From NCBI GenBank assembly GCA_965178125.1, contig OZ237753.1, forward strand, positions 434,001 through 498,000: a stretch of 64,000 nucleotides of DNA, written 5' to 3'. Positions within the stretch are counted from its first letter, which is position 1. Every line of letters starts with the position of its first letter. Made by a program: the position numbers and the translations under genes. Source of the stretch: Bilabrum cf. latius (Eukaryota). This document shows positions 8,677-52,852 of the stretch, piece after piece. Under the pieces are notes generated by a model. That model made no database searches. It worked only from the letters and a program-made list of their open reading frames with translations, and was not told where the DNA came from.

Positions 8677-9651
8677 TCAAAGCTTTACTTTGTTCTCAGA
8701 AGGCTTGTGAGCATCTGCGTAGACCAAGATCAAGTGTTTGCGACTGAACCAGCTCTAAGCAGATAACGATGATTGCTTCGAGTGAACCATTCCCATTATA
8801 GACTTTTAAAATGCTACAATACGCATCACTATTGTCTATCGCGCTAGTACATGAGGAAGACAAAGCGTTTCGACGAACGACACAAACTAACATACAGGCA
8901 TGACTGTCGACCTGTACTCACCATCGGACTTAAGTGAGCTCTTCTTACGTCGAATTCAGTTGTAATGAATAGAGATAGTCACTTGCGTCTTCAACTATAG
9001 CTGATTTCTGTGAAGTAAGGAATTCAAGAAACGGAGCACGGCTCCGAGTTGCTGTTTCCGGATTGCTGATGAGCGGCAGCAATGGAGCGCGAAATTGGTC
9101 GACATGCTATTGTAATTGTCTGCCGCATCACTGCTGTGATGGCACTTCTCTAAAGTCTGCATCCACCACGCGCTCAGCATCCACACCCGCAGACCCCGTG
9201 GCCTGATGCGATGCACCCCCCGCGCACCAACACCGCGCCCAGCCCCCCGCCACGAATGCCACGAATAGATTGAATCGGGTGCGTCAGATCCTCTGTATTG
9301 ACGCATACGGGAAGCACCCTCAGCGCACTAACTCCGTGCATGCTACCACGACGGACCTCGGCCGGACCAGGGGAAGCTAGCTGTACGGCACCCCCCGGGC
9401 CGCAGTTGTGGGTCATGCCTGGTGCGCTCGAGAATGCATGCAATGACGCTCGCGGGCTTGCCTGAGGCAGCCTGTGTGCACTCGTGAAGTTGGTTTGGGA
9501 GTACCCAGAGGCCTGATGTCTACGTTACGCTCGAGGTGGCTTGGTGCGATCGCGGCCGCGTTCGGCTGCCGCTGCTGGGATGGTCGCAACTTGAAGCCCC
9601 AGAATCCGTTCGCCCCGATTCGAGCCGCGCTCAAGATCCCCTCTAGCTATC

Positions 9652-12600: not shown

Positions 12601-15600
12601 AGGGAGCGGTCCGCCCGTTTGGCCACCGGCACCAGGTCCTCCTTCTACAAGGCTAATGCCGACATCACCAAGCTGGCCCGTGCGGCCTCCAAGCACGTGT
12701 CCTCCAAGCCGACCAGAGCATCAGCAGCTCGAGCGGCGGCGTTGATGCGTGAGAAGCAGCAGCAAACTGGGGCTCGGGACGAGTCCAAAGCCGCGGCTAT
12801 CATGGCAGCTGCAGCAGCATCAGCAGCCGGCGGATTCTCTGATGCTGAGGTTGACAAACCGAGGCCGCCACCGCCATCGAGAGAGGGCCAGCTGCCAGCC
12901 GGGACACAGCACCAAGGCAGAGGTGGCACTCCGGGCAGGTCACAACCCAGGGCGCCGCCTAGCAGGGAGGCTGGGTCAGGTGGACGAGACGGCTCATGGG
13001 ATGAGGCTAGCCCGGCAAGGGGTCGCAAGCGCGGTGGGGAGCAGCACGCGAGCCATCCGTCTGCGGTTGGTGGAAGCAGCCGCTCTTTCCGACGCATTGC
13101 ATCTGGTGTGAGCGTTGGATACCTGGGTAATCTGATCGACGAGCAAGTTGCGGATGAGGCTGACCTGGACGGGGAATGGGAAGGGGGGCGAAGCGGACAT
13201 GACGAGACGGGCAGGAGTGCAACAGGGCTCACCCAGGGTGCGGCCGGATCCAGGGAGCACGAGATGCCCGGCGGAGGTCCCAGGGAGCAAATGTTTACAG
13301 GAAACGGCACAGGGGGCCGGAACAGGGGCGGGCCCAACCGGGTATCGTCCTTTGGTGCGGTGAGCCTGGGTTCAAGCCACAGCGAGAGCTCTTAGCAACT
13401 CGTGGAGGGCCAGTCAGGGTCGGGGCACGACCTCAGGAGAGAGTTGCTCGACTCGTAGAGCGCACGTCGTCACCAACACGACGAATAGATGCACGTGACG
13501 AGTGCGACTGGCACCAGCCCTTAGCAGCGGAGGCTGTCGCGAAAGCACCCGCACAGTCAGACAATGGCGGGAGGTGCCATGCAGGGTGCGTCTGGGGGCG
13601 CTAAGGGCACGCACGCCGGGCAAAGGCCAATGCGCGCCGCCAGCTCCGCTGCAGATCTCCACAACGTTGCAAATGCTCACACCGTTGCTCGCCGGGCGGC
13701 GAGGGATTTCCGGCAGAAAAAAGAGCAGCTGCGCATGAGTCGCACGGACTTGACCGCTGGGACTGAGTATCAGGACGCAGTGGGCCTCGGTAGCGGGGAG
13801 GGTGGCGATGGTGACCCGTCGGACGGTCATGACAGCAGCGGCCATCCCCAGCAGGCTCACCTGGATGAGGACGAGCGAAGCGTTGTGCTAGCCAGGGTTG
13901 CCTCCCGGGCGCGAGTTGTGCCCATCAAACAGAGGGTACGAACCGACGCGGCAGCGGCGGCAGAGGCCCGAAACTTGCTGGCAGAGGCAAAGGCAGCGGG
14001 GGCCAAGGTTGGTCGGGTTCGGCCGTGGATGTCGGGAGCTCATGCTGGTGGCGCTGCTCGCAGCGTAGACTAGGAACAGCACAGGCCACGACATGGTTCC
14101 GATCATGTGGATGGGCACAGTCAGGCGTCAGTAGGCGGAATGCGCGGGCTTGGGGCCCTGTCATCTTCAGCAAGCCGGAGGCATGAATCCAGCCGGCGCC
14201 TCAGGCTAGCAATGCAGGCTGCATCCACTGGTAGTGGTGCTAGAAGTCGTGTGATGAGTGAAGACGAGGAGCAAGCGGCGGCCCTCCGTGATCGGGGAAT
14301 TGTATTGCTTGCCAAACCCAAGGTATACAGCCCGATCGCCGCGGGATTAGATTCAGCTGGGGCTGGGTTTGGGAGGCCAGTCGAACCGGCAACCACGTCT
14401 GGACAAGGCATGCACCGGGCAGGCACGATGGGACCGGGGACCCAGGGAACACGAGGGCATGTGCCGTCTCGAATGATTAGTCGCCGCCACAGCATGGAGG
14501 ACATCATGCACGGGTCGAGCCTAGCGGTTGGCCAAGCCATGGCGCGCAGGCAGCACGACAGCGATGCTCGCTTCTTGACGGATAGCGTGAGCGGTGGACT
14601 GTTTCACCTTGATGCCAGCATGGCTTCTTCGCCTTCGAGCAGCAAAACGGGCGCTGGTACTGGTGGGCGACCAAGGAAGGTTGGACCAGGACCAGGAGCG
14701 GGAGCGGGAGCGGGAGGTGTAGGCGGAGAAAGGGGCAGTGGATCGATTCGGGCACCGCGCGCACAGCGACGTTCTGGGGGTGCTGGCGATGCACGATATG
14801 GGCGGCGCTCTTCGTTGCCTGACCGTTTGAGCGAGCAAAGTGGTCAAGCAAGTGCTCGTGCTGCTCTGCCGCGCGGATCTCCTAGGAACAGCGACCCACG
14901 GCGGGTGCGGGCTGAGTCCAATTCGTCGTCGCAAGGCGTGAGCTGGGATCCTGAATCACTTTCTGATGCCACTGGAGAGGGCAGGGCGGTCCAATTTGAG
15001 GGTAGAGCGGCGAGCAGGGGAAGAGGCGTGGCTGTCCCCTCGTCTGGCCTGTTGCTGCATCCGCACTCGGGCCGATCGGTTCCGTCCCTAGATTTGCGCG
15101 GCGCCCGTCCCAGCGCGACCGACCTGCAAGGCGACACCTCTGGTATGATTCTATCGGCTCGAACGTTCGCCGATGCCGGTCGTGCGCGCGACCATGCGGT
15201 GCACCCGCGGCGAGGACGAGGCGGCGGCGGCTCACTCAGGGGACCGGGTTCGTCTCATGTTTCCGTTCAGCTGCCGCTGTCCATTCAGTCTGCGCGACTG
15301 GGTGCATCGCATGGCAGTGCATCAAGGCACGGCTACTACCGCGATCACCGGGCAGCCAGGGGAGTACTTTCGGGTAGCCGCGGCACTGCTGGCAGGACCG
15401 TGCCGATGCCGATGGGTGCTTCTGGGCAGGATGGGCACGGGCAGGCGCTGGGCCTTGATCACCTACTGGTGGCGTCTGGCTCGATCGGTGGCCGGAGTGA
15501 TGGTGCATCGGGGGTGCGTGCCTAGTATGCATTGCACGGTGGTGTGCGCAGGACTCGAGCAAGGTCCCACTCTCCAAATTCGATGCGGGTGGGGGCGGGC

Positions 15601-15798
15601 GGGGCAGCGGTTGGCGGTGGCAGACCTGGACCTGGACTCGATCGAGATTCCACCTGGGGTAGTGCAGGCGCAGATAACAGCAGGAACCCTTCGGCATCCA
15701 TGCACAACAGTTCAAGAGGCCAGCTGCCGTCCGGAACCGTTGCAATGCCGATGGATGGCCTGGCCTTGGCGGGCCAGTCGGCGATTGTCCGGCGATAA
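9652..15798 (+). CDS. Hypothetical ~2048-aa protein with a central coiled-coil and Gly/Ser/Ala-rich low-complexity regions
   Basis: Seven track ORFs (9787 to 15798) are in the same frame, joined by about 10 TAGs with no TAA/TGA. ATG 9652 follows an upstream TGA and the gene ends in TAA. No family recognised. Confidence 0.7.
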
Positions 15799-17379: not shown

Positions 17380-20352
17380 GAGAACCCCCAGATTTGTCCG
17401 GGGGGTTCCAATCGTAAAATCAACAGGTGCCGTCGATTTTACGACCAAAATCGACAAAGTTGGACAAATCTGGGGATGTTGGCCCACTAAAACCGACATT
17501 ACTCGGAATCAATTGAGGAGACGAGCACGCCTCCACACTCCTTCCGTGTTTCGTCCAGCACGGCTGTTGGATCGCCGGATTTTTCAACCTTCTCACAATA
17601 ACCAATGGCAGGTGCATCTGATGGCTCTGGGTTAGACCCCACTGGTAAAGCCGTGCTATCAGACCAGCTCGGCGAGGAGTCTGCGGCCGCCACTGGTGGC
17701 GTCGGCGCCCCCAGAACCATTAAGTTTAGCTCTTCCTCTCGTAGACATATTATATTCTCTATTCCTCTCGTAGTGACCGATTGAGATATTGAACAGTGCT
17801 GATGAGGGCAACGAATAGTGCCTTCGATGCTTGTGGCTGTTGAGAAGCGGGATTGCTTTCCTCTATACAAACACTATCGCAGAGCCCGCGGTCGACCATG
17901 TTGAGCTTGCTAGCCTTCGCGAAGTGCTGATGGGTCTAAGATACCTGAAGGCACCCCCTCACATCGCTGCTCATGCCTCGGCCACCCCCACTGCCTCTCC
18001 CCTGGCTGCCCCGTCTCCTGGTCCTCCGCCCCCCTGCCCCTGCCCCAGCTGTTACGCCCGCAGTCCCACCGGGTGCCTGCCCCGGCAGCCCACCCGTCGC
18101 ACCACTGCTGGGGCCCCCCAGCATGTCATGCCCCCCCCGCCCCACCCCTGTCCCCTTCCCCCCGGGCCCAGTCCCCTCCAGCCCCATGACCTCCCTGCCC
18201 GACCACGATATCGCCGACGCAGTCGCAGTCGCAGTCGCTTTCGAGCTCACTCGCATCGCTGCTCATGCCTCGGCCACCCCCACTGCCTCTCCCCTGGCTG
18301 CCCCGTCTCCTGGTCCTCCTCGCCTCCCGCCGCCCCCCTGCCCCTGCCCCTGCCCCTGCTGTTACGCCCGCAGTCCCACCGGGTGCCTGCCCCGGCAGCC
18401 CACCCGTCGCACCACTGCTGGGGCCCCCCAGCATGTCATGCCCCCCCCGCCCCACCCCTGTCCCCTTCCCCCCGGGCCCAGTCCCCTCCAGCCCCATGAC
18501 CTCCCTGCCCGACCACGATATCGCCAACGCAGTCGCAGTCGCAGTCGCTTTCGAGCTCACTCGCATCGCTGCTCATGCCTCGGCCACCCCCACTGCCTCT
18601 CCCCTGGCTGCCCCGTCTCCTGGTCCTCCTCGCCTCCCGCCGCCCCCCTGCCCCTGCCCCTGCCCCTGCTGTTACGCCCGCAGTCCCACCGGGTGCCTGC
18701 CCCGGCAGCCCACCCGTCGCACCACTGCTGGGGCCCCCCAGCATGTCATGCCCCCCCCGCCCCACCCCTGTCCCCTTCCCCCCGGGCCCAGTCCCCTCCA
18801 GCCCCATGACCTCCCTGCCCGACCACGATATCGCCGACGCAGTCGCAGTCGCAGTCGCTTTCGAGCTCACTCGCATCGCTGCTCATGCCTCGGCCACCCC
18901 CACTGCCTCTCCCCTGGCTGCCCCGTCTCCTGGTCCTCCTCGCCTCCCGCCGCCCCCCTGCCCCTGCCCCTGCCCCAGCTGTTACGCCCGCAGTCCCACC
19001 GGGTGCCTGCCCCGGCAGCCCACCCGTCGCACCACTGCTGGGGCCCCCCAGCATGTCATGCCCCCCCCGCCCCACCCCTGTCCCCTTCCCCCCGGGCCCA
19101 GTCCCCTCCAGCCCCATGACCTCCCTGCCCGACCACGAAATCGCCGACGCAGTCGCAGTCGCAGTCGCTTTCGAGCTCAGCTCTGTCGCTGGTGTCGCCG
19201 GAAGCCGGCCGGCACTTGCCGCTTTGTCTTGCCGAAATGCCCGGCCGCGTCGGCAGAGTATCCTGCGTGTGCAAACCAAGAGGAGACGGGAACCGCGGGG
19301 CGAGATGCGGAGGCAAACACACTTTGTAGTACAAGCCTATAACCTGAAAGTGATTGCTCACCTCATCTCAGGTACACGAGAACCGAAAGCAGGCGAGCCC
19401 ATCTAGGCAGGATTGCCATGCTGCCTCTACCTTGGTTGTTCGCCAGCTTCCAAGAAGAACGACAAGCCTAGCTAGTCAAATAGTACTCCAGTAGGACGAG
19501 CTAGTATGGGCTCAACCCTACCTTCTTTTCAAAGGCTTTCTCTGCTTGCAGAACTGTGCGTTCACCGCGAACGCGACGGCGGGCGCGCAGGTGCTGCCAC
19601 GTCCTGGGCTTAAGCGCCTGCCTCAAAAGCTAAGTAACTGTCACACAAGAGGTAACGCAAGAGCGTGCCACCTGTCCCGGCCGGACGGAGTATCCTCGTG
19701 GCTAGTTGCAGACGAACTGGAATCGCTCAAAGCATCGTCCCCTACTGCCTGATGCGAGTCGCGCCGGAGCTCGTCTTAAGCCACGCAGCGTAAAAAATCT
19801 TCAATCACCGTTTTTGCGGCTCGATCCCTCTGTCCCTTTGGTAGGGTTCGTGGGACTCGGACAAACATCTGTTCGATCCTACGCTTGAAATGAATCGGCA
19901 GCCTTCGACTCAACGCACGAACTACGGCCGGAACGGATGCCGAAAAGCCACTTCTGCGATGATGTTATGAACATGTAGGCGATAGGAATCGATAAAAAAT
20001 GTGGCATGAAGCAGCCTAGTTGGGAGCAAATTGCGCTGGCCAAAGGTCGCCCCTGTAGTTCACCAAGTAGTTAATTAGACACTCAAGAACCTCTTACTGA
20101 TTCATCTGTAGTATAATATTGCAATGAATGGTCGGAACAGTCTCTCAAAGCTTGTCACCAGGCACGATGTGGACGGCTGTCGGATTCTGGCCGATTCGCT
20201 CATCCAGCCGTTTGTTTTCTGTAAATCCGACCGGGCGGCCTGTCGAATTCGTCGATAAACTTGTGATCGGATCGGATCGGATCACCGAATCCGACAGTCC
20301 GTCGATTTTGGCACGTCGATTTTGGCAACCCCGGACAAATCTGGGGGTTCTC
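17380..20352. mobile_element. Non-autonomous TIR DNA transposon (~3 kb), possibly PIF/Harbinger-like
   Basis: A 24-bp perfect inverted repeat GAGAACCCCCAGATTTGTCCGGGG lies at 17380-17403 and 20329-20352. It is flanked by direct TCA (17377-79, 20353-55; alternatively CTCAG with 1-bp shorter TIRs). GTCGATTTT subterminal motifs occur at both ends. No transposase recognised. Confidence 0.8.
17962..19179. repeat. Tandem array of ~4 near-identical C-rich units (292, 310, 310, ~306 bp)
   Basis: Units start at 17962, 18254, 18564 and 18874 and contain internal (GCAGTC)3 and (CCCCTG)2-4 sub-repeats. Confidence 0.95.
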
Positions 20353-28650: not shown

Positions 28651-30355
28651 TCAGATGAAATCGTAGTCCTCCCCCTCCTCCTCCTGCTCGCCGTCCTCAG
28701 CCTCATCCTTCGAGCTACCTCTTTCCGGACCCACGGGGCCTTGTGGCTCGGTGGCCTTGCCGGCACCTGCTGCACCAGCACCAGCGCCAGCACCACCCGA
28801 AGTGTCAAAGAGGTCGCCTTCATCATCATCTTCATCTTCTTCATCGTCCTCGAATGCGAGCGGGTACCGCAGCAGAGCCCCGATCCCGCCGAAGCCCATC
28901 CGGAGCATGCAGGCCTCCTGGGACTCTCCCAATAGATCCGTTGAGTCGCCAGCACCAGGGCCAGGACAGCCGACCCAGACCACCCTTGCGCCCTCCACCG
29001 ACTCAACGGATTTCTTGCCGCTGTCGGTCCCGGGCCCAGCCGCGGCACCAGCGTGCGACGCACCCTGCAGTGCGACGTCCTCAAGAATACGAAGGCACCT
29101 CGATAGCTCCAGGTCTCCAGCGGAACCGTCGCCGCGCGCCAGCCGCCGGGCACGCTCCTCACGGCCTTCGAGCTTCCATCGCATTTCGGCCATGCCGCCG
29201 ATCCCAGGCGGCGAGGTGTGAGACGGCTCCTTGTCCCCTGCGGAACCTCCACCCTTGCCGGAGGCGCCCCGCATTTGGGTCCATCGCGAACCCTCCGACA
29301 CGAGCACGCATTTGACGGCCCCTGCTGCCCACGCCTGCAGCACGTGAGCGGCACCGTAGCACGCACGGACGCCGCCCGCAGCACCGGCACCGGCTGAACC
29401 CACGTCGATCGGCGCCTCGGTCAGCCTGCGGAACATCTCCCGCAGGAGGTCCTCCTCGTCTGCGCGGCGCCGGTTCCGCAGAGCGCCAGCGGCAGCCTCC
29501 ATGGCCACCCGCAGGCCCAGCCGGCCCCCGTACTCGGACGCGACTTGCAGTACGGGGGCACGGTGCTTGCCACCGCTGCCCGCTGGCGAAGAGGAGGACA
29601 AGGGGGACGGCCCGCCGCCGGGCATCCCTGCGACCATCTTCGCAAGCTTGGCAGCCACTTGGTCGCAAACAGACCCACCAGAGGTTCCCGCGACCACTGA
29701 GGCCTCAGTGACGAGCCTCCCCGCCCCGTCGCGGAAGGCGAGCATGGCGGCGTCGCAGACCCGAGCACTTGCTTCATCGACCTGGCCCTCTCTCAGCCTC
29801 TGGAACCGAGGAGCGCTCTGGCCTCCCTTTCTGTGCTTTGGGGCGATGGAAAAGGACACGGTGCGGTGGGACCATGCCCGCTCTCCGTCGGTCAAGCAGA
29901 TGCTCGCTTCACCAGGACCGAGCACGATCACGCCGGCTGTTCTTGCGCCGGCTCCGCTCGCCGCTTCGACGGACTGTCGCAGCTAATCCAGGTCAAAGAC
30001 ACGGCATGCACCTGTAAGTGTGGTGTTGTACCGGAATTGGGGGAGCGAGCAGGCATACGTCAGACGAGGACGCGAACACAGCTAGCCCAGACTTTGGAAC
30101 CGAGTTCTTCAGGGAAGCTTGGACCATCCCAAGCTGCGACCGCACTTTACCGATGCAGGCTATCACACTACTACGGTTACTCTTGCTTCGAATCTTGCTG
30201 GCGGACGCCGCCTGCTCTCCAAGCGCAGACATCGCCGCGGCAATCGTCGAGTTTGGTTTCAGGTACAGCGACACCATAGATTCGTCGGCCTCCTTCGGGC
30301 ATCTCCATTCGGACAGTACATCGACATCAAGTCGACTTGCTACTCGCACCTGCAT
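28651..30355 (-). CDS. Divergent eRF1/aRF1-like class I release factor, split by a +1 frameshift at CTT-TGA-C (29998-29992)
   Basis: The N domain (SMVSLYL, SASKIRSKSNRSSV, VPKSGLAVF, PPIPV..YRC) is in one frame. The M domain (APKHRKGGQSAPRFQRLR) and C domain (CYGAAHV..GAVKCVLV, GFGGIGALLRY, acidic tail) are in the +1 frame. About 567 aa if joined. Confidence 0.85.
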
Positions 30356-31126
30356 ATCTCTATCCTATGTGGTGGCTGTTAGAAGTGATTCTATCGCTGC
30401 GTTCTGGGTCTACAAAAAAAAACCGGAACCGTCCTCGGCAGACTCCTCTCGGCAGGAACAGACCTTTCCGCGCTTTGGGGCGATGGAAACGGACACCGAA
30501 TTGCGGTTTCTGGTCCGACGCCCGGTGAAATGTTCGCTTTGACGCGCCAAAATAGTTTGCACGGGATTCGTGTGTGTGCTGGGCATACTCTTTCTTGCCG
30601 TTCGTCATCTACCAGCAAAGTCGCGTGCCACGGACATGCTGCTGGCCCAGCAACCAAGTGTAATAGTTTGCTGGGAGATCACTGCTCTAGCCATTTCATA
30701 CTCTGAGTTGAATTGATCAACTTGCTCGCCCCACCTGGAGTTCATCTCTCATTTCAGCATCGCCAGTTTGCGACTGTTTGTGTGCTCGCAATGGCGTGCG
30801 ACCACAGGTGTACCGGCCAACTTGAACACCCAAAACGGTGCATATTTGCTGCTGGCCAGCGGACCAAAAAACTAACAATGAGTAATTTAGTGACGCGGGA
30901 GACGCCCCAACAGCGATGATGTCGTAGCCAGTCCTTGATTTGTTCCCTGCCTCGCATGCACGAGATGACGAGCGAGGCAGGGCACTGGACACCAGCGCCA
31001 ATCAACTGCAAGTCACAAAAAGCCCACGTCACACCTGGCTGCCCAGCAGGCACACATTGCAGCATCAAGCACGCTGGGTTCGAATAAGTTCAATTAGATT
31101 TCCTTGCTGTTATTTGCTTCGATCAG

Positions 31127-33968
31127 ATGGGCTGCGGAACCTCTACTTTGGCAGCAGTGCACGTAAGATGCGATACACGCGCGAGCTACCGCTTGCAAAT
31201 TAGCCGTCTGGAGAGACAATGATTTTGCGTTTTTAGCAGCACCAATGGGACCACTGCCGGTCGTATTCCCCACGTGATGTGCCTTGATCGATGATTTGCT
31301 GGACACGCACCTCGATTCTGTTAGATTTGGTGTGTCGCTCGCAACAAACGCGCACCTCTGCCAGTCAAGCTTGCTGCCAGTGACCAACGATGGGTGGATC
31401 TCGCAGGCCAACCAGCAAGACTCTTTTGAGGTGACGCGCAGCAGCCACGAGGAACTTTAGAGCGATCGGCCACATGCGATTGAACATGGCACTGGAACCA
31501 ATAGAACCCCGATGGTAGCGCCTATGCGGAAAGATCTGAGGGGCGCTGCCGCAGCTGGAAAAAAGCTGCTGCTCCCTGTCGGGCAGATAATCAAATCTGG
31601 TCGTCCGCGGCACCGGCACGTGCAATTATGGGTTCTTTCGGCGCATCGTAACAAGCACGCCAGGATATACTTCGCCTCAGGCCCGCTCGAGGCCATCGCG
31701 GTCCAGCGGTGGTTCACTAAGCTGCACGCAGAGATGATCTCGGCATGCAAGGGCAGCCATCAATATCATAAATGTCACTCGCAGTGCTATCGGGAATTGC
31801 AGCGAGGAGCTCCCATGGTGCAGCCTTTTACCATGGGCTCCACGGTACTGGCGTCGCCAAGGTATCTTGGGGTGAGGACCAGGCGAGTTCTCGCGCAAGA
31901 TGCCTGCGATTCTGAAGTATTGCCATGCGTGCTCGAAGCTACGGCAACATTCGATATAGATGTCGGAGAAACCGAAATTAGGTACGAAGTCTTCGGGCAG
32001 CTGCCGATCGAGGATATGGCGGTAATGATGCCTGACCCGCTCGGGGACTAGCTCTGTAGCTAGCCATCTGCGACTTTCATCTCGTCAGAGTCTTCACCGA
32101 AGTAGCTTCCGCGCCACAAAGAGCTGCCAAAGTCGCGCCTGAGGCCGAATATGCCGTCCGGCGTTTTGCGGAGTACAAGCGCTCCAGCTTCCATGCGGCG
32201 TCGTAGCCCCGCTGGCGCTGCTACCAAATCACAAGAAAGTAGGCAGGGCTGTTGTCATAGGGCGCAATTGAACTTAAGCGTAGACTAGTACACACGACGA
32301 TGTGACAGTCACCTGTCCGTAGTTCGCGAGGTCACCGTCGAGGATGCCAGCCTTCCATCGATGGATTCGGACAGTAATTCTACGAAGAGCTCTTCGAGAA
32401 CATGCAAATGCAGCCAGAAACTTATAGCAGGAATCGCTGATGCGCACGTGCAATCGCCGGCCTGCCAGAGCGAAAAGGATGTGGATCAACCACTGTCAGC
32501 GCCGGCGGTTGCAACCTGTTTCCAACAGGATGGTGTCGACAGCGTTGCACTGGAGTCTCCTCCTGTGCAACTGCACGCCCAGGCATCTCTTGGGGCTATT
32601 GGCGGCTGTGCTGTTGGAAGGGGGCAGCATTTCACGGAAGCGAGCACGCCGACCGAGCAGCCCCGTGCTTGTATTGCCACCAATGCGGGCTCCAACGCCC
32701 ACCGGCAGGAGGAAATGCTCGGAATATATGTGGCCAGAAGCTTTACGTGCACGAGTACTCGTAGAGGCAGCCGGGGAAAAGCCGGTGAGCACTTGCGCGA
32801 CTCGAACAGAACATCGCCGAGCTGTGCAGGGGGCAGCTCCCAATCTGGTCGCACCGAGTCTGGGAGCGTATCGTTTCCGGGAAAAAGCTCGTTGGTCGAG
32901 TCCTACTTGCCTGGCGTTGGGAGGGGAGACCGAATACACGATCTTTCCACTGGTACGCCTGGCACCTTGGAGCTCCCGCCGAGCATATTTTACAGCACAC
33001 ACGCCGGCAACAGCTTCCGGCCGGGTGGTGATCCGAAGCGGGGAAACCACAAGCTGCCACGAGAGCGCATCCCGTACGGTGACAATGCGCGACGATCGCA
33101 CATGAATGCTGCGACAACTGGCACTGCGCTGCCGAGGCATAGAGGCCGGGAGGCTTCAGCTGCTCGACGGCTCTCCCGCGGCGCCAAGCCCTCAAACGAG
33201 CAACGTTTCAAGCTTGGGGGCGAGAAGGCGCGCGGATCTCATCGAATCTATGGAAGTCCAACCCGTGGTACCGCGGGTAGACGTAGGGGCAGATCAAGAA
33301 GCTTGGGCACCGGCGCTCCACAAGCTGCTCGCTCGCTCCTGCCAGCGTCGACCTCTTCCATCAGTGGCACCATTGGCACCAGTGGCAGTGGAGTGCAATC
33401 AGATCTCGGGTTTCAAGACCGGCAGTTGCCCAGTTAGCCCCGGGGAGGCCATGAGGCAGACACCAGCAGCACCTCAAATTCGAGCAGCATCTATTTCGGC
33501 GCGACGAGCTTGCTGGCATCTGCCTCAAGTTGGTCAGTCTCCGGTGGTGGTGGCCAGTTCGACCGCTTCGTCCCCGTGGAGCTGATTTTGCCTCCAGGTG
33601 GAATGGAGAAGAAGCAGGCCAAGAGAAATGGCGAGCACGACGCGGCCTGGGGCGAAACCGATTCAGATGACGACTCGGAGGAAGAGTATGAAGAAGGGGG
33701 TCCTGCCCACCGAGTCGATCAGTCGCGGTACGCAGCGGCGCACGAGCGACCATCGCGTTCGTCCGGGGATATCGGTTCAGGGAGTGACGAGAGAGAGGGC
33801 GAAGATTCTACAGACGAATTCAGTGCGGTGCTGAACCCGCTGTTCCTGATTAGGACGGAGGGTCCCGTGTGGGGGGCTCTCATGAGGCGAGCAGGATTCG
33901 TGCACGGGCTGAGGAAGCTGCTCGGGCTGCGGCAGCTGGCTGTTGTAAGGCTAGGGGTTGTCCAATGA
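31127..33968 (+). CDS. Unrecognised family paralogue 1 (MGCGTS start; intron 31163-31364)
   Basis: A phase-0 GT-AG intron joins the MGC exon to a TAG-containing frame. Shared motifs are QLWVLSAHR..FASGPLEA, FVPVELILP and LNPLFLIRTEG..LRKLLGLRQLAVVRL. Ends in TGA. Confidence 0.7.
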
Positions 33969-34551: not shown

Positions 34552-37424
34552 ATGGGCTGCGGGGCATCAACCCTGCCCCAGCACGGCGTGAGAGCCGTGA
34601 CATTCCGCGGGTGCTACACACTCGCTAGATATCCCTTTGACATTTGAATAATGTGGTTGTCTACCATAATGCCCATTCTTTTGCACGCGCGAGAGGACTG
34701 CGCGTGCATTCGCAAACCACGGGCTGCGCGTGCCACAGCTCAAGCGGGGTCCATTACACTGCTCAGTTCCACCCATCGCAGGGAGATACCACGGGACCCT
34801 CATTCAGTGACATCGATGAAGATGGGATGAGCAGATCGTTTGAGGAGTACGTTGCCGAAATCAACAGAAAGAACCCAGGACCTCAGGCTGCAGGCCGCGA
34901 GATCGAAGCAGGCCAGATCCAAACGGACTAGCTGGCCAACCTGATGGGCCGGCCAATTCGAGCTCTGCGACAAAAGCACGTGCAGCTCTGGATAGTGTGC
35001 GCACGTAGAAGTCGGAATGCCAGGATTTTCTTTGCTAGCGGTCCTATGGAGGCCGTGGCAATCGAGCAGTGGCTGAGCAAGCTAAACGAGGACATGCTAT
35101 CTGCAAACGCAAACGACAAGCTTTGCCGGGAGCGCGCCGATTCGGAAGACGCACTTGGGAGTATTAGGGTGGAACCTTTCTTATCGGGATCCACATTCCT
35201 GTCGTCGCCACGATTCCTGCAAGTTTGTGTCGGAGCTAGGCCGCTGCAGCCACCGACGCCTCAGTAGCCCGATCAAATTCCTGCCAGTGTGGTCAAATGC
35301 TTAACAAAGCACAAGATCTGTGTCGGGTAGGATGAGCATAGATTCGCTGTAGCGCCGGTGGTGCCAGCGAAGTACGCGGCTGCTGCCATGGTGGAATGCA
35401 CCGGCAACAACGCAGTCGATCAGCCCTCGGTAACGATAGCATCAGAGCTACCATCAGCAAAATGCGAGCCGAGACACAGGGAGCTACCTGAATCTCCATT
35501 AAGATCGAACTTGAGACGGCAAGAGGACGACATACGCCGCACAACGAGCGCGCCCCCGCAGCTCGCGACAAAGCCCCGCAGCATTCAAGAAACCGATGCC
35601 AACGGGGTCGGTCCCGGTGAAGCATTCCTGCCAAATAACACTACACCGTCACCCAGCGGAAACCCAGGATCAGATGCACGATCGCACGATGGTATCGCAC
35701 AGCCAATCCGCAGCAAGCGCCTGGGCACGGAAGGCTCCAAGCTGTCGGTGGTCCAAGAAGCTACCATGGAAGACGGAAGCTTGATATCCACTGACAATGA
35801 CAACTGTTCTGAGGATGATTCAAGAGGCGCTCAACTTGGCAATACGGATGAGGCTTGGTCGAACAACAATTTTAAGGATCGACGAGGTCGCAACCCGGAG
35901 CCACACTGTCAGCGCATCGATGGTCGCATCGTCGACTCGGCTGCCAGCAGCTTGGCCCCAACGATCGGTACAATCGGCCGAGACGGCAAATTTGTGGTCG
36001 CATCGGGACCCCCGTTGATAAAACCTGCTCCCAGTCGCTGTGATCGTGGCAATGCAGCGCGATCGTCCGGCCAACGAGTGTCGGAGTGGATGCCAGAGCA
36101 CCTGTCTGCTCAAGAGTTTGACCCAAGCAGACAGGATGGGCTCCCTGTTGTGGCCATCGCAAGGCGCTTCACGTGTGCGAGCAACATATTGAGCCCTATT
36201 GGTCAGGGCTTCCAGCAGGAAGGCACAAGCAGCGGCGTGCCCGCTGGTCACACCAGCGCGGTGTTCAGATCCGAGACATAGACTGAGTTCGGGAGTTCAG
36301 CAAACGCCTATGGAAGCAGTCTGACCAGTTGCAAGGCCTTTGAGCATGTGAAAAGCCAGACTACTACCAGGAGGTTCTTCGAGACCGCATCTCAATCAGC
36401 GGGCGCCGTCAGGGCTCGCTCCCGAGCAACTGCTCGCCGAGCACGATCAGCGAGCCTCGATTTTTCGCCCAGTTCCCTGGCGCACCGAAGGCCGGGCAAG
36501 TCCAGGAGCGCAACGAGGAAAGTGCGGGTCGGAAGGCACCTCGAACGTAGACATGATTTTGCGACCAGGGAAGCAGCGGCGGCACTCGAACGAGATTCTA
36601 GGAGTGGTGCTGGTGGCGCATCTGCCTTGGCCGAGCACACAGGAGGCAGCAGGACAACCAGCCACAGCCGGCATGGAGAAGGCACATCCGGTGCATCTCA
36701 CTACCGACAGGACCACTCGGTATCGGCACCGCGTGCCTTTGGAACCGAAGGGACCGAAACCGAAAGGACGTCGTCGGGCGCGGCGAGCAGTGCGGGACAG
36801 CTTCAAATCGAGTTGTCTGGCAGGCGGAGGATGCACAGGCCAGTACGATTGAAACCACACCGGCACCGGCACCGGCACCGGCACCACAGTCCGCCCCGCC
36901 GAAGGGAACGTTCGGTGCACGAAGTTGGGTTCGCCAGTCCCAAGCATGGAAGCAGCTCCTCCGATGCAGGCAGCACCGCGACTTCCTCCTCGTCCACAAC
37001 GAGCGGGTTCCATTTCGGTGCGACCAATTTTGAGGCATCTGCCATGTCTGGCAGGGGAGAGCAGTTCGACCGATTTGTCCCAGTGGAGCTGATCTTGCCC
37101 GCGGATGGATTGGAGCAACACAAGGGTGCCGAGCAGGCGAGCGACCGAGCAAGTTCTTCTTCAGCTGGGACGCCAAGCAGGAGCGGTGGTTCATCGCCCA
37201 GCAGGAGAGCCGCCTGGCCCGAAGATGGGCACCAGGAATAGGAGGTGGAGGCGGAGAGTCCTCAAGATGATGGGTTTGATTTGTTGCTGAACCCGCTGTT
37301 CCTGATTAGGACGGAGGGCCCCGTGTGGGGGGCTCTCATGAGGCGAGCAGGATTCGTGCACGGGCTGAGGAAGCTGCTCGGGCTGCGGCAGCTGGCTGTT
37401 GTGAGGCTGGGTATGGTTAACTGA
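34552..37424 (+). CDS. Unrecognised family paralogue 2 (MGCGAS start; intron ~34588-34781)
   Basis: Same architecture and motifs as paralogue 1. The frame is continuous through TAGs and ends in TGA at 37422-24. Confidence 0.7.
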
Positions 37425-37738: not shown

Positions 37739-40700
37739 ATGGGCTGCTGTCATTCCGCTGCCGTCCATGCTGTCCTCGTGAGCTCATCGGTTTTATGTTC
37801 CTGTCATATACCCTCTTCATGCTATTGTATTCTCCGTCGAGCGAGCGTCCCGTTGCTATCGCTCCAGTGTTGCATTTCTAAGTTGCTCCATCACACTCGC
37901 GTTGTCGTTTTCGCTGGTCGCAGCCGCGACACATGCTAGAGCAAAGGCGGTAGCAGCACTTGCCTTCATCAGATACATATGCATCTGGCTTTGCTAGGGG
38001 GAAAGCAACCGACCATGGCCAGCAGGCACTGCAAACCAGGCGGGTATCTGCGCAGGACAGGCAAGGCCAGCGTCGCTCTAATTCAAGCCAACTTTGGGTG
38101 TTGGCGGCTCACAGAACGAAGGGAGCCGGTATATTCTTTGCTTGTGGGGCTCTGGAAGCGCTGGCGGCGCAGCATTGGTTCCGGGGACTGCACGAGCGAC
38201 TAGCCGGCCAGTCGATGGCAGGCATTCACGCCACGCCAAGGGTCATTTCGTTCCAGCACTCGGCTGTTCAAGGCGCGTTTTAGCAGCACGTATGTGTGTC
38301 TACGTAGCAAGTTCCATTGATTGATGAGAGTGCCGCGGATAGCTCTTTCGCGCACGGTCGCACCGTGACGCTTGCTCGGTTACCGCCGAGCATAGTCGAC
38401 ATCCTCCGAGACAGGGGCATCAGCAGCAAGAGATCACGCACCGTGCTGCAGGTCACCGCTGGCGCAGCCGGACAGAACGCGTCGCAATCGCACGCTGATT
38501 CCGTGCAGGGCCTCGCCAACCGCGCCTTCCCCCGCCGCCTCCCCCGCACTCACAGCGAGACGCTACCAGGCGGCGGACTCGCCCGCACAATGGGGCTCCT
38601 CCTCCCGCACAACTTGGTCCGGGAGAATTCCGGCTCCGAATCTGTGTCGTCGGCGGGCAGCGTCGGCAGCGCTCGGAGCCTGCCCAGGCATCGGCAGGTG
38701 GACAACTACCAGCTCAAGTCGAGCTTCAGGGGGGCAGGCAGGGGGCCCCAGGGAACAACGAGGCAGAGGAGCGCGAGCGTCCCCTCGCGACGTGCCATGG
38801 GCATGCAGCCAGTAGGACAGGCCCCTGCTCACGGAAGCAGAGGGGAGCACGGGGCGGGCACGGGCGCCGGCATCCTCTTGCCTGCTGCTGCTGCGGACCA
38901 CGGGGCGGGCACGGAGGGTGCATCGCACGGCAGCGTGCCGGCCCCCCGGGTCTTCGGCAATCTGCATGGCCACGCCATCCGCAGCTACCGCCTGAAGGGC
39001 CGTCGGCTGAAGCAGGGCATCCCCAGGGGTATCCCCTAGCTGTCCATGGTACGGGAGGCCACGGTGGAGGACGCGAGTGCCAGGTCATCCGAGATGTCCT
39101 CCTCCAGGAGTTCCAGGAGACACGCGCTGATGGGGAGCGTGCTGGCTGGAGACAGGCGCAGCCACAGCGGTGGCATGGCTCCCATGCAGCTGGCAGGAGG
39201 AGGGGGGACTGCAGCTGCAGTTGCTAGCACCAGCCCCATCGTTGGTGGCGTTGGTAAGCAAGCCGGCATGTTGCCCGGGCGGCCGTCCAATGGCGAAGGG
39301 GCTAGTGGGAGCGCGGGCGGCAGCAACGATGACATCATGTTTAACACGCTGGCGACGCACGCTGCCAACCTGGCTGCCAATGAGGTGGCTGAGTCACCAG
39401 CCAGTGATGGGACCGAACTGCCACAGGACCAGAAGCACGGGTCGACCACGATCGCAGCAGGAGACACAGCATCAGAAATCGTGCCGTCGGGCGTGCCTTT
39501 AGCCCCTGCTCCAGGCATTCGATCCGCGCTGCCTCCGTTGCAGCCTGGCGGTACACGAGGCAGCTCTGGAAGGAGCCGCCTGCTGCAGGCACTTGCTGAC
39601 GGAGATCGGGGCGGTGGTGCGCCTGCGCATGGAATGGGGAAATACCATGCGACAGATCAGCCAGCAGCGGGTGAATTGCACGGTGGCAGGGGAACGTCTC
39701 GTCTGCAGCTTGGGCCAGGCGCATCGACCGGTCAGCTATACGGCGCTGGTGCTGCTGCGGGAGGGGGCGCCAGCGCCGGTGGTGACAGTGCTGCGAGCAG
39801 CACAGGGAAGGAGAGAGAGGGGGCGGGTCGCGCGCCTAGCGGCAGCAATCCCGCGACTAGGAGCCAAGGCAGCAAGGGGACCGTGTCCACCGGTGGATCC
39901 AAGGGAACTGGATCGTTTAGTAGGACCAGTGACTAGATCTAGTCCACTGACGGCGGCGTGCTGCCACACGGAAGAAGGAACGGCAATAAGGCCTAGGGCC
40001 CGAGTCGGGATACGGGCCAGCTCAGCAGGCAGCAGTTGTACTCTCTACCGGTGATTAGCGTGGGCAAAGACGTGGTGGAAGGAACTGCGTCGCAGCTCGG
40101 AGCGGCGAGGATTGCCCTGCACGCCGCCTCTTCTCATCTGACGCAGTCGCTGTCTGCGGGCAAGATCGGCGGCTCGGGTGAGTCTCCCGTGACCCGTAGC
40201 GCGGGCAGTAGCAAGGGTGCTCCTGGTTCTGGACCCCTCCGGTCTGTCGAAAGCTCCAACAGAGTTACGTCGATCAGCCGGTCCGAGGGTCCGTCGGCGC
40301 TGCAATCCATCGGTGGACTCGGCGACGACCGCTCAGGCGTGGCGATCACCGGCTAGGGCACCCATGGCCTGACCTCGTTCAGCACAACTGCCACTGGGAT
40401 TATGCTTCGCGCGCACGCTCCCACAATGCCCGCCCCGCGTGCTCATGGCCCGGACCCCGGCACATCCTAGACACAAGCGCAGGTTCCATCATCCAGGGCA
40501 CAAGTGGCTGGTGCAGCGGACACACCACCGGTCGGCATGCCGCAGGCTGCCAGTGGTGATGAGAGGGTCCAGCATGCTCGGTAGAAGGACAAGTCCGGCT
40601 GGAAACAGGCTCGCGAAGGTAGCGGCGGCAGCGATAGCAAGGCGAATCGACTCAGCAGCAATTCCATTCGAGACCGAAGTGGTAGTTGGAGCGGCAATGC

Positions 40701-41343
40701 TCGGCTGTCCGCGAGGGTCACGCTGCGGGAGCACGCGAGCAACCGGGGAGGAAAGAAACAAGGGCGCGAGAACTTGCTGTCCAGCGGGTCCTCTGCAACA
40801 AAGCAAACTTTAAGGATACAGGGATCATCGCTGTCCAAGTTCGGAGGCGAAGGGGAGGAGCATGAGCGCATCGGCGCAACAGGTCTTCCCGGTGGCCTGC
40901 AAGCTGGACGGGGACTTGATCGCGTAAATGCCGGGCAGCTGGCAGCGCTGGGAGGGCCCAATGTAGAGGTGGCTGGCTCGAACCGGATGCCAGGTATTGC
41001 TACCGCGGAATTGCTTCGGGGAATGGCGCATTTCGTGCCGACCGAGCTTTGCTTGCCGCCTGGCGGCGCACGGCGGGTGATGGCTGAGCGGGGTGCTTCC
41101 CAGCAACCCGGTGGTAGAAAAGCATCGCAATCCAATCAATCCAACAGAGGTTCTGATGAAGAGGCAACACTGGATATGATGCTAAATCCCTTGTTTCTCG
41201 TGAGAACGGAGGGCCGGATTTGGGCTGGTCTGCTCCGCCGCTCTGGGTTCACAGAGACGCTAAGCAAGGTACTCGGGCTAAAGCAGCTGGTTGTGGTAAG
41301 GCTGGAGCCGAGAAGTATGTTGGAACACGACTTGATTGACTGA
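37739..41343 (+). CDS. Unrecognised family paralogue 3 (MGCCHS start; intron 37778-37923)
   Basis: Motifs QLWVLAAHR..FFACGALEA, FVPTELCLP and LNPLFLVRTEG..LSKVLGLKQLVVVRL are present. The frame is continuous through TAGs and ends in TGA. Confidence 0.7.
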
Positions 41344-45262: not shown

Positions 45263-45459
45263 GCTGGCTCTTGCGTCCTGTGTTTGCATGTTTTGCGTTT
45301 AACTATGGGAGTTGGTCGGCAACAGGGAGCCCCGCAGCACGTTGCACCTGGAGCTATTCTGGACGGCTTCATCCTATTCGGAGCCACAACCAAAATGACG
45401 GTTGAACAAGCATTTCGAGCGAAAGCTCGGCTTTCCCTTCAGGTTTGTGACACACCAGC

Positions 45460-48400
45460 ATGGAATCCTTGATTTTAAACAATTCAGTTGCATGGGAGGA
45501 CAAGAATGAGCAACTGAGAGCCATGTTTCGGGCTCGATAGCGCGATGTTACACAGATGCTGTCCCCGAAAACTCTGACGCGCATCAAGGCCCTCTTTGAT
45601 GAGTACGAGGAATAGGGTGGCATTAGACTACCTGCATTTTGCGAGCTGATGGAGCGTGTGCTCGGTGCTTTCGTGGCCAGCCGAGTCGATTTCTTCTGCT
45701 AGCTAGTCCAAGTGTTTCGCGAAATTGATGCAAACGATGATCTAACCCTGGAATGGAACGAGCTGACGACGCATGTGCTAGAGTTGGGGCGCTCTCTCAG
45801 TGTTGACGCGGCTCAGTACTTCGCGACTGCTTATCGATACAGCTTAGCCAGCGATGCCGATCGCAACGCGCACTCCAGCATCACAGAGGGCACTTTCTTG
45901 TGCGCCCCTGCCCGAGGACTCCTCCGAGATGTCCCGAGGGAGCTGCCTAGCGAGAGTGGCAATGCTGCGAGCGCTCTTTTTGGGCCGCAGTAGACGATCG
46001 CCGCCGGCGACGACACGGATCGCGGCTACCCGATGTCGAATCTCCTCCTGTGCTCATGGGAGGGCGGGAGCCCTAGGCTAAGGGTGTACCGGCCGACCTA
46101 CCGGCAGCAAATGGCGGGCCTTCAGGGCGCAGGTGCCATGATGCATGACACTGCATTTAAGCCTCATGAGGTGCTCGCGGCGTGCCACGCGCAGCTGGCG
46201 CACTGCTTCGTGACCTCGTCGCAGGAGGGCGCGGCCGGGCCTTTCTTCCTCTCGTTCTACGACGACCAGACACATGCACTGCTGAAGAGGGTCGAGACCA
46301 GGACGGCGGTTGTGTGCCTCACGTATGCGGAGAGCATGGGCCTAGTGTACGCTTGCGGCAAGGAGCCTAGGGCGATCCGGGGCTGGGACCCAGGGTCCTG
46401 CACCGTGAAGCAGAGGGTTCCGCAGGTCGGCGGCGCCGCCACATGCATGGCCGTGCTTCCCGGTCACGTGGACAAGACCCTGCTGACTGGCGGTACGGAC
46501 GGCTGCATTCACGTGTACGACCTTCGCACAGCCAAGGGGAGGGAGGGGCTGTCCTTGGCAGCCCACGAGATGGGGGTACTGCAGGTGAGGATCGCGAGGA
46601 GGCTGCGAGTGGCCGTGTCCATCGGCATGCCGGTGACCACGGAGCGAGCCTGTCCAAAGCAGTACAACACTGCGCTGGTGTGGGACCTGGACCAGTGGCT
46701 GGGGGCTGGGGAGCAGTTCGGGCTGAGCGACCTGGGTGGGGGGTCTGGATTCTCGCCAGGACCCGGCGCTGTGGAGGTGCCGGGCAGGGACGAGGACGAG
46801 GACAGCTTGTTCGTGCGGTCTGGCGGCAGGGATGACGACGAGGCAGTGGGTGGGCAGGGTGATAGAGGGGGTGCAGAAGAGGAGCACAGGCGCGAGCACG
46901 AGGGGCTAGAGATCGGGCGCACAGCCTCGGGTAGGCGGATCCGGCCTGGCGTGCTGCACGGACACGAATACGGTCTCGTCGCGGTCGCGATCCAGGACGA
47001 CGAGGGGGTCTTGCCCCACGTAGTGACTGCTGACTGCGGCGGGTTCGTTAGGGTCTGGCACCCCCGTCTGTGCAACTGCCTGCAGGTTTTCTCACCCGTG
47101 CTGCCTTCGAAGCGGCTGCCGCCTCCCGCCGCGTTGGGCGGTGTGCCTGCGGGGCCGGGTGGCGTCCCGCGGGCGATCTTCCTGCAGAAGCAAAGGATGG
47201 CCCGCAAGGCCGCCGAGAAGAAGAGGAGGAAGCAGATCGAGGACGTCGAGAATCCAGAGGCAGTCAAAGCGGCCACCTCGCAGGCTTATGGGAGTGCCAT
47301 GGCTCAGAGGCGGGCATGGCTCGAGGAACAAGAGGAGGACCAGCAGGCAGCAGGGGGTGCCAATGGAGGGTAGAGGCTAGCCAAGGTGCCGGTTCCCCGT
47401 GGGGGAGGAGCTTACCTTGCAGAGGGCGTGCTGGCGAGCAGCAGCATTGATGCACTGGATCCTGGCTCCAGCGCCACAGCGCTACAGCAGCTTGAGGCCG
47501 TGTCCAGAGGGTCCAATGGCAGGGCGGTCACACCTGGTACCTTTCGGAAGGGCGGCAGGCGATTTCAGCTGATCAAGCAGACGGGAGACCTCAAGGAGGA
47601 CAGCATCGACAGGTTTGCCCACTCCCAGGCCGTGACCATCGGTGCCATGGTGGCTGCTGGGATCCAGGTGGGTGGGGGTGATGAGGACGAGAGCGGCGAC
47701 ACAGAGAAAGGCGCCCGCACGGAAGTGGGTAACACTGAGATATCGCTGCGCATCCAGTCCCAAGCGGAGGCAGTCGGCCGAAGGATGAGCGTGTCCTAGT
47801 ATGCCTAGGCCATTGGGGCACTCAAGCAATCCGCTCAGAAAGACGAAGACGAGGCCAAGGGTATCAGCAGAGGCTCTGTGGATGAGGACGACCTGGACGG
47901 AGGCGACGAGGATTGGTGGGCGGATCCAACGCAGCTGGAGGACGACGAGATCGGGGGCGGCGCTGCTTAGATGGTGACGGCCTCGAGGGTAGGGGTGGGC
48001 GGACGCAGCAGCAGCAGCAGCAGCAGCAGTCGACGGCACGGCTCCACCGTGCAGCCAATGCAACGCAGAAGAAAGAATCCGCTCAGCAACGCGGGCATTT
48101 CGCACCGCAACCGGCAGCGCATGCTGAAGGCACTTCGGTGCCTCGAGTGCCTTCCGTGTGAGGTGGGCGGGCCGGAGCGCAGACCCACGCTGGCCCTGAT
48201 CGGTGATAGGGTTGCTGTGATGTCATTCCAGCAGGTCGTGCCTGAACTGGAGCCGGTGGTGGCATGCGTCTGGCTGTATCCCACCCTTTGCATTGCAACT
48301 GCGTGTCCATCCGCCGTCGTGGTGTGGGACGCTTTGGTTGGCCGTCCACTTCGAGTGGTGTCTGCAAGAAACCTGTGCTATCGTGGGGCGGACATCACGT

Positions 48401-52704: not shown

Positions 52705-52852
52705 TGCGGGTCGGATCGCAGCTTCTATTTGATAGAGTGTTGCGCGTTGTAGGGGCGGCGTTTGCCTGAAATGTTGAGATCAGCTCAAATAAGGAGATTC
52801 CTTGCTGTCACATGTGTCTACCAGCACATTGGAGCCCCCCCTTTCCACATGA

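Follow-up and report, generated by a model that had tools for sequence, protein, structure and literature searches.

Autoregulation of a release factor through a shifty stop codon is a textbook bacterial circuit, with the CUU UGA C heptamer of prfB (RF2) as its signal. Comparable recoding has been reported for giant-virus eRF1 genes: Mimivirus R726 was shown experimentally to need both readthrough of a UGA and a +1 shift at CUU UAG C (Jeudy et al., PMC3521657), the Megavirus gene mg280 has its shift site at CUU UAA C (PMC3521657), and many members of the Mimiviridae share the consensus CUUUAG together with readthrough at UGAC (Zinoviev et al., PMC6582330). According to the first of these articles, eukaryotic and archaeal homologues lack such mechanisms (PMC3521657). 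Here we describe an eRF1-like gene from the cellular eukaryote Bilabrum cf. latius that is divided between two reading frames exactly at the sequence CTT TGA C. The gene lies on the minus strand of a 64,000-nt stretch of contig OZ237753.1 (GenBank assembly GCA_965178125.1, positions 434,001 to 498,000), hereafter the window, and all coordinates refer to window numbering. An initial annotation of the window had called attention to the gene and had interpreted it as an RF2-type autoregulated release factor. In the following sections, we present the anatomy of the junction, weigh the explanations that could account for it and compare the locus with described recoding systems.

A release-factor gene divided between two frames

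Read on the minus strand, the first open reading frame (ORF1, frame 0, 29996-30355) begins with the ATG at 30355 and runs for 120 codons to a TGA at 29995-29993, its product ending in YRCMPCL. The sequence leading into this stop is TAC AGG TGC ATG CCG TGT CTT TGA C, the last seven letters of which (CTTTGAC, 29998-29992) form the candidate shift site, with a C in the +4 position after the stop. In the +1 frame the junction reads TTT GAC CTG GAT TAG CTG, and the second open reading frame (ORF2, 28654-29994), which starts at the GAC at 29994-29992, extends for 447 codons to the final stop, a TGA at 28653-28651 that is followed by G. Its product spans the M domain, the C domain and an acidic tail. 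It contains KHRKGGQSAPRFQRLRE, in which the catalytic GGQ is encoded by GGA GGC CAG (29826-29818), and, further downstream, GFGGIGALLRY (28861-28896), the counterpart of the GILRY motif. The fourth codon past the shift is an in-frame TAG (29983-29985), beyond which a further 443 codons remain open. The composition of ORF1 by codon position (GC 0.57/0.49/0.62) is similar to that of other genes of the window.

Homology to eRF1 switches frame exactly at the stop, with 0 garbled codons between the two halves, and both ORFs are otherwise intact and retain the GGQ and the GILRY-like motif. The anatomy recorded initially, namely the CTT TGA C junction, M and C domains in the +1 frame, an intact GGQ and two open halves, is thus what the sequence and its translations contain, and the observation that the slip codon falls on the F of the YxCxxxF motif likewise holds, residue 120 occupying a near-invariant F column in an alignment of 13 sequences.

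Division of the gene precisely at the RF2 signal, CTT TGA C, makes a programmed ribosome slip probable. We propose that the two ORFs would encode one eRF1-family class-I release factor of about 567 residues, made via a programmed +1 frameshift, and we assign this proposal a rough probability of 0.55; an RF2-type programmed shift is the best single reading of the locus. Part of the earlier interpretation survives in this proposal, supported by the reality of the extra base, the position of the junction at a stop behind a CUU slip codon, the context of that stop, the lack of an alternative ATG and the presence of comparable sites in giant-virus eRF1 genes; its statements concerning introns and UGA as a stop required revision, as detailed below.

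Position of the frame change and context of the stop

The position of the frame change was compared with a random-insertion model, in which the gene was brought into a single frame by script and all 6,792 possible single-base insertions were tried. In 5.3% of cases a stop appeared no more than one codon away from the inserted base, and in 0.6% such a stop was also preceded by a slip-prone codon (defined as one that re-pairs at 2/3 positions in the +1 frame). The layout NTT-T(stop) arose in 0.3% and the exact heptamer in 0.03-0.06%, and the median insertion gave 23 garbled codons before the first stop was reached. By itself, the heptamer shows no enrichment across the window (10 occurrences vs 7.0 expected), so the argument rests on where the heptamer lies rather than on how often it occurs. 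The base that follows the stop is also unusual for the window: among 14 likely genes, a small set of which 3 were picked by length alone, the +4 base is G in 7, T in 4, A in 3 and C in none (0/14; with C at a frequency of ~0.29, p ~0.008 by our own arithmetic). In eukaryotes, the stop context with the highest readthrough is described as UGA-C (PMC6582330).

As a separate observation, the 2,417-codon WD40 gene elsewhere in the window ends in CTT TGA T (52696-52705, plus strand), and so has the same slip codon and stop with T in the +4 position.

Reality of the extra base

Single-base indels are a common artefact, and an assembly or sequencing error would place at the junction a base that the organism does not have. 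A search of public sequencing runs identified the sequence in 9 runs of 5 studies, and contigs of 4 runs from 4 studies were compared with the window. No compared run is recorded as RNA; two are guessed to be RNA and were represented by contigs. Contigs of all four runs (4/4) match the window across 29992-29998 without a single differing letter or gap, their depths being 20.1, 3.46, 12.1 and 6. One of the four runs may be the source of the window itself, and the identical sequences may represent one strain. Recovery of the extra base in independently assembled contigs of four runs from four studies excludes a one-off assembly error and answers the concern, raised initially, that an indel error had created the junction. 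The local run is, moreover, merely TTT and no long homopolymer, and we regard the error explanation as hardly credible.

TAG as a sense codon

The TAG that lies four codons past the junction would, under the standard code, represent a second interruption of the gene. However, when TGA alone is allowed to end a frame, the window yields ORFs of 2,069, 2,417 and 1,712 codons that contain 10-15 in-frame TAG and 0-1 TAA codons, and without TAG as a sense codon these ORFs of 1,712-2,417 codons would be closed (examples of genes in the variant code are at 3538-8676 on the minus strand and at 9595-15798 and 45451-52704 on the plus strand). Across five coding regions totalling 7,122 codons there are 39 in-frame TAG and 1 TAA, the latter located 2 codons ahead of a TGA at a gene end, and the CAG:CAA ratio is 207:77. 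The stops of the 14 likely genes are 13 TGA and 1 TAA. TAG is therefore a sense codon in this genome, with TAA and TGA as stops, and the TAG past the junction is not a second defect. The initial annotation was right to treat UGA as the main stop, given its use by 13 of 14 likely genes, although it is not the sole one, since TAA also serves. Seven alignable TAG positions in an ABCC transporter of the window are paired with Q, K, E, D, W, A/E and A/D, so that TAG may encode a polar amino acid, for instance Gln or Glu. Reassignment of UAG alone is a rare type of eukaryotic genetic code.

Other routes to a full-length or partial product

Several routes other than a ribosomal shift could in principle yield functional protein from the locus. 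Simple readthrough in frame 0 leads nowhere recognizable: no homology was found in that frame beyond the TGA, and a further stop is reached after 31 codons. With TAG as sense, the +1 frame is open from 30108 and contains no ATG before the GGQ, so the GGQ-containing protein cannot start separately at an AUG.

An alternative based on this geography is that the gene is truly split, the N domain and the M plus C domains being made as two polypeptides through reinitiation after the UGA at a non-AUG codon, CTG (29991-29989). Such a codon does lie two codons into the +1 frame, and stand-alone clusters of eRF1 domain 1 (~101-115 aa) are found, probably as first ORFs of interrupted viral genes. Yet with no ATG available before the GGQ, with no precedent for a split eRF1 in the literature search, and with the slip-prone CUU and the +4 C left as coincidences, we consider reinitiation extremely improbable.

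Repair at the RNA level, by a small intron or by editing that removes 3n+1 bases and so brings the mRNA into frame, has more formal opportunity than was first stated. It had been claimed that no GT-YAG intron near the junction restores the frame. That claim was too strong: 405 GT/GC...AG pairs in the scanned range would, on formal grounds, reopen the frame, among them a 49-nt GT...TAG at 30031-29983 and a 37-nt pair at 30000-29964. However, each frame-restoring pair that spans the junction would excise part of the gap-free alignment to eRF1, with YxCxxxF or the helix behind it among the lost residues. Furthermore, in the contigs of the four runs, of which two are guessed to be RNA, none joins across the junction, and the neighbouring genes are uninterrupted ORFs of 1,712-2,417 codons in what looks like an intron-poor genome. 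On balance, repair of the transcript appears very unlikely, and a programmed slip of the ribosome remains our preferred account.

Family membership and motif content of the predicted protein

Two Pfam domains are recognized in ORF2: eRF1_2 (PF03464, the M domain; 40.4 bits against a cut-off of 27.1) and eRF1_3 (PF03465, the C domain; 32.5 bits against a cut-off of 25.8). When ORF1 and ORF2 are read as one product of ~567 residues (P0001), a phmmer search of all PDB chains returns 26 sequences, all eRF1 or aRF1 except for one weak match to Dom34. The best alignment pairs residues 25-208 of the query with residues 29-211 of eRF1 and traverses the junction without a gap. In this comparison KHRKGGQSAPRFQRLRE pairs with KHGRGGQSALRFARLRE of eRF1, and G177, G178 and Q179 are invariant columns in the 13-sequence alignment; GFGGIGALLRY and the EDDEEDEDDDE tail that follows it align to the C end of yeast eRF1. 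No homology to bacterial RF1 or RF2 was found, the Pfam and PDB matches being confined to eRF1, aRF1 and Dom34, and on these matches the predicted release factor is not a member of the prfB family.

The N domain gave mixed results. Pfam eRF1_1 (PF03463) matched neither the N-terminal ORF at E<=0.01 nor the joined protein, even when E<=1 was allowed. A tentative assignment of this domain is based on the phmmer alignment, which pairs residues 25-120 with residues 29-126 of eRF1, and on an Atlas feature search with the N-terminal ORF, in which eRF1_1 clusters rank first with a score of 0.96. Closest of all in the Atlas is an eRF1_1 cluster of 115 aa, commonest in Nucleocytoviricota.

NIKS, YxCxxxF, GGQ and GILRY are among the motifs named in the Mimivirus eRF1 study (PMC3521657). 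In the predicted protein the stop-recognition motifs are not conserved, GTS being replaced by DES, TASNIKS by SASKIRS (thus NIKS by KIRS) and E55 by Q. The Y and C of YxCxxxF are retained, and a codon for the F exists in the +1 frame only, so that a slip on CUU would yield Leu at the junction. The altered GTS, NIKS and E55 positions, together with the long branch described below, make a paralogue or a strongly derived factor likely. The protein is a very divergent eRF1-family member that may be a paralogue and not the main eRF1 of the cell.

Relatives and phylogenetic placement

An exhaustive comparison of ORF2 with 1.84 billion representative sequences gave 72 matches at E<=0.001, of which P0003 alone is close. 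This protein, the single member of its cluster and encoded on a 1,645-nt contig, is 88% identical to ORF2 over 226 residues and keeps its frame open across in-frame indels; it starts after the GGQ and covers residues 80-305 of the C-terminal ORF. Searches for homologues of the N-terminal ORF among proteins of 66-210 aa and of 30-65 aa found none, and a search with the joined protein returned one distant match, low-complexity words having swamped it. Scans of viral, metagenome and prokaryote-genome contig collections likewise yielded no relative. Used as viral queries, P0005 and P0038 gave no loci, and an alignment query led to one uninterrupted viral gene of the aRF1-like type (L001).

A quick maximum-likelihood tree was computed from 83 rows, leaving out P0003 and other matches shorter than 230 aa, P0017, P0040 and the near-duplicate loci L009, L010, L014 and L016. 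The query falls on the eukaryote-type side (SH-aLRT 98), where it is weakly joined to divergent, GC-rich eRF1-like sequences (P0022 and others; SH-aLRT 91). Its highest identity to any tree row is 31%, to P0022. Two interrupted giant-virus genes, L006 and L012 (discussed below), stand apart from the query, all three being long branches whose placement is unsure. A phylogeny of the gene against eRF1, aRF1 and viral sequences, as proposed at the outset, thus gives a eukaryote-type position separate from the two viral genes, with the same reservation about long branches.

A programmed shift weighed against decay of the gene

The explanation that most directly competes with a programmed shift is that of a recent pseudogene or strain-specific lesion, in which the insertion of one base disabled a fast-evolving and redundant paralogue of eRF1, leaving a useless N-domain fragment as its only product. 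Several observations are unfavourable to a programmed shift, and some of them speak for decay. First, the protein is strongly divergent for an eRF1, with a best PDB E-value of 4.8e-17, an unmatched eRF1_1 domain and altered NIKS and GTS motifs, and it sits in the tree on a very long end branch (3.88); this pattern would equally be expected of a decaying or neofunctionalised paralogue, and extreme divergence with loss of NIKS and GTS is what a pseudogene could display. Second, one base inserted into an ancestral TGT TTT GAC or TGT CTT GAC suffices to create CTT TGA C. Third, the slip would place Leu where eRF1 near-invariantly has Phe. Fourth, the distant relatives are in a single frame at the junction (for example P0043, ...CGRHFDTD...), and P0003, the sole close relative, is known from its protein sequence only and lacks coverage of the junction. 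Fifth, no stimulatory RNA structure was detected, the z-scores being -0.31 downstream of and -1.54 around the site, and an Rfam scan returned just two sub-threshold, snoRNA-like chance matches. Finally, none of the listed runs is recorded as RNA, and the four compared runs, being identical, may represent one strain.

Against decay stand the statistics of the insertion model, in which 0.3-0.6% of random insertions give this layout and the median insertion leaves 23 garbled codons, and the fact that a release-factor gene is the one class of gene in which this exact cassette has a known function. In addition, 567 codons are free of a second lesion and keep the GGQ and the GILRY-like motif intact, and P0003 retains 226 open codons with in-frame indels. 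In view of these features, we consider a recent pseudogene a serious alternative, though less likely than a programmed shift. If the gene does prove to be a pseudogene, the locus would constitute an instructive coincidence and a caution for motif-based calls of recoding.

Proposed mechanism and significance

According to the proposed programmed shift, ribosomes would initiate at the ATG at 30355 and read the 120 N-domain codons until CUU occupies the P site and UGA-C the A site. A UGA followed by C would terminate poorly, and while the A site awaits a release factor the peptidyl-tRNA-Leu could re-pair from CUU to UUU. GAC would then be decoded in the +1 frame, and translation would go on through the GGQ-bearing M domain and into the C domain, whereas termination at the UGA would yield the N-domain fragment only. 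Since the shift would compete with termination at UGA, the yield of full-length protein should rise when the capacity for UGA termination is low. An RF2-type negative feedback loop would further depend on a product that itself reads UGA, and the suggestion of the initial annotation that the gene acts as a feedback sensor of UGA termination would hold on that condition.

One can extend this idea to propose that a UAG-reassigned cellular eukaryote independently reached the RF2 solution, with a factor restricted to UAA and UGA that uses its own CUU UGA C as a sensor of termination capacity. We view this extended proposal as quite unlikely and offer it as speculation. Such a restricted factor may be a second, specialised class-I factor beside a canonical eRF1, forming a two-factor eukaryotic termination system. 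Irrespective of this speculation, a programmed shift at the exact RF2 heptamer in a cellular eukaryote with UAG as sense and UGA and UAA as stops would, if confirmed, amount to a third independent origin of the shifty-stop solution for release factors, would tie stop-codon reassignment to shifty-stop recoding and would supply a natural reporter of the efficiency of eukaryotic UGA termination. It would also add a cellular eukaryotic case to a mechanism otherwise reported only in bacteria and in giant-virus eRF1 genes. The view expressed initially, that no cellular eukaryotic eRF1 with such a site is known, agrees with a full-text literature search that found no cellular eukaryotic release-factor gene of this kind, subscription-only papers lying outside that search, and with the absence stated in PMC3521657.

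Neighbouring genes and other features of the window

The release-factor gene is surrounded by genes for an ABCC transporter, malic enzyme, a member of the tubulin-tyrosine-ligase family, a giant WD40 protein, an amino-acid transporter and a CLU protein, all of which can be read without interruption. Uninterrupted cellular neighbours of this kind point to an intron-poor eukaryotic nuclear genome and not to a virus. No tRNA genes (0) were detected within the window by a tRNA scan.

The 5' leader of the gene contains a 45-nt near-copy (30463-30507, minus strand) of the coding stretch 29867-29826, the ...VSFSIAPKHRKG segment immediately ahead of the GGQ. The two copies share an exact 18-mer, found twice against an expectation of 0.1, and their local alignment score is 55, compared with a maximum of 30 for shuffled sequence. 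Both copies lie within the open frame of their region. With TAG as sense, the leader copy shares the open frame of ORF1, in a stretch without coding-like composition.

Other features of the window include three tandem paralogous genes on the plus strand (31278-33968, 34641-37424 and 37882-41343) that encode large, low-complexity proteins with a conserved C-terminal block, LNPLFL.RTEG..W..L.RR.GF...L.K.LGL.QL.VVRL; the one paralogue scanned against Pfam gave no match. A very GC-rich tandem repeat at 18031-19179 (period 310 nt, 3.7 copies, 99% matches) contains three ORFs that end alike. An ORF at 52856-54622 on the minus strand, which carries large inserts, weakly resembles the mRNA capping enzyme in both of its domains, with scores under the cut-offs (26.0 and 21.2 bits).

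Comparison with described recoding systems

The resemblance to bacterial prfB extends beyond the heptamer CUU UGA C, which is identical. In both genes a short first ORF is closed by an in-frame UGA, an overlapping +1 frame encodes the catalytic portion with the GGQ, and the product is a class-I release factor. The stop codons of this genome, UGA and UAA but not UAG, moreover correspond to the codon set of RF2. The differences are equally clear: the protein described here belongs to the eRF1/aRF1 family and has no sequence homology to RF2, its first ORF spans 120 codons and thus a whole domain, compared with ~25 codons in prfB, and its shift and feedback are proposals. A eukaryotic gene would not be expected to have a Shine-Dalgarno stimulator.

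Other eukaryotic +1 systems share a shift at an in-frame stop, namely antizyme (UCC UGA U) and the Euplotes genes (AAA UAA/UAG). In such shifty-stop frameshifting slow termination permits P-site re-pairing, and it has been connected with stop-reassigned organisms (PMC1874602, PMC4759687, PMC10235951). The present locus differs from these systems in its slip codon and in that no antizyme-like 3' pseudoknot was found. It differs also in that widespread frameshifting was not seen in the window, where a scan for +1/+2 ORF pairs was uninformative because overlapping open frames are abundant in GC-rich DNA. Plant eRF1 offers a different parallel, since expression of a eukaryotic eRF1 there also senses the efficiency of termination at its own stop codon; this autoregulation, however, acts at the normal stop through readthrough and nonsense-mediated mRNA decay (NMD), in contrast to the internal frameshift envisaged here (PMC5397192).

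Close counterparts are also found in the eRF1 genes of the Mimiviridae. To place their sites relative to ours, IMG/VR was scanned with a pattern for the GGQ region, which identified 15 giant-virus loci: in 11 the release-factor frame continues through the whole N domain without a break, in 2 the locus ends while still within the N domain, and in 2 (L006 and L012) the gene is interrupted. L006 is interrupted at CAG TAT CTT TAG C (~2500-2560 of its contig) and L012 at GCA TGT ATT TAG C (~11090-11125 of its contig), two different positions that both lie in the N domain upstream of YxCxxxF. In L012, as in the Bilabrum gene, a TGT directly precedes the slip codon. The viral and eukaryotic genes are alike in that the N domain of an eRF1-family gene is interrupted at (C/A)UU-stop-C and in encoding divergent proteins with substitutions in GTS and NIKS (PMC6582330). 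Several features nonetheless set the present gene apart. Its stop is UGA, where theirs is UAG or UAA; ORF1 contains no in-frame TGA and hence no upstream UGA-C readthrough site; and its shift falls on the F of YxCxxxF, ~20-45 codons later than in L006 and L012. It also lies among cellular genes and uses the TAG sense codon of its host, and the tree places it apart from L006 and L012, subject to the caveat of long branches. The existence of comparable sites at several positions within the eRF1 family makes a functional site in this gene more plausible, and the different positions of the viral sites, together with the separate placement in the tree, favour an independent origin over transfer of a viral gene.

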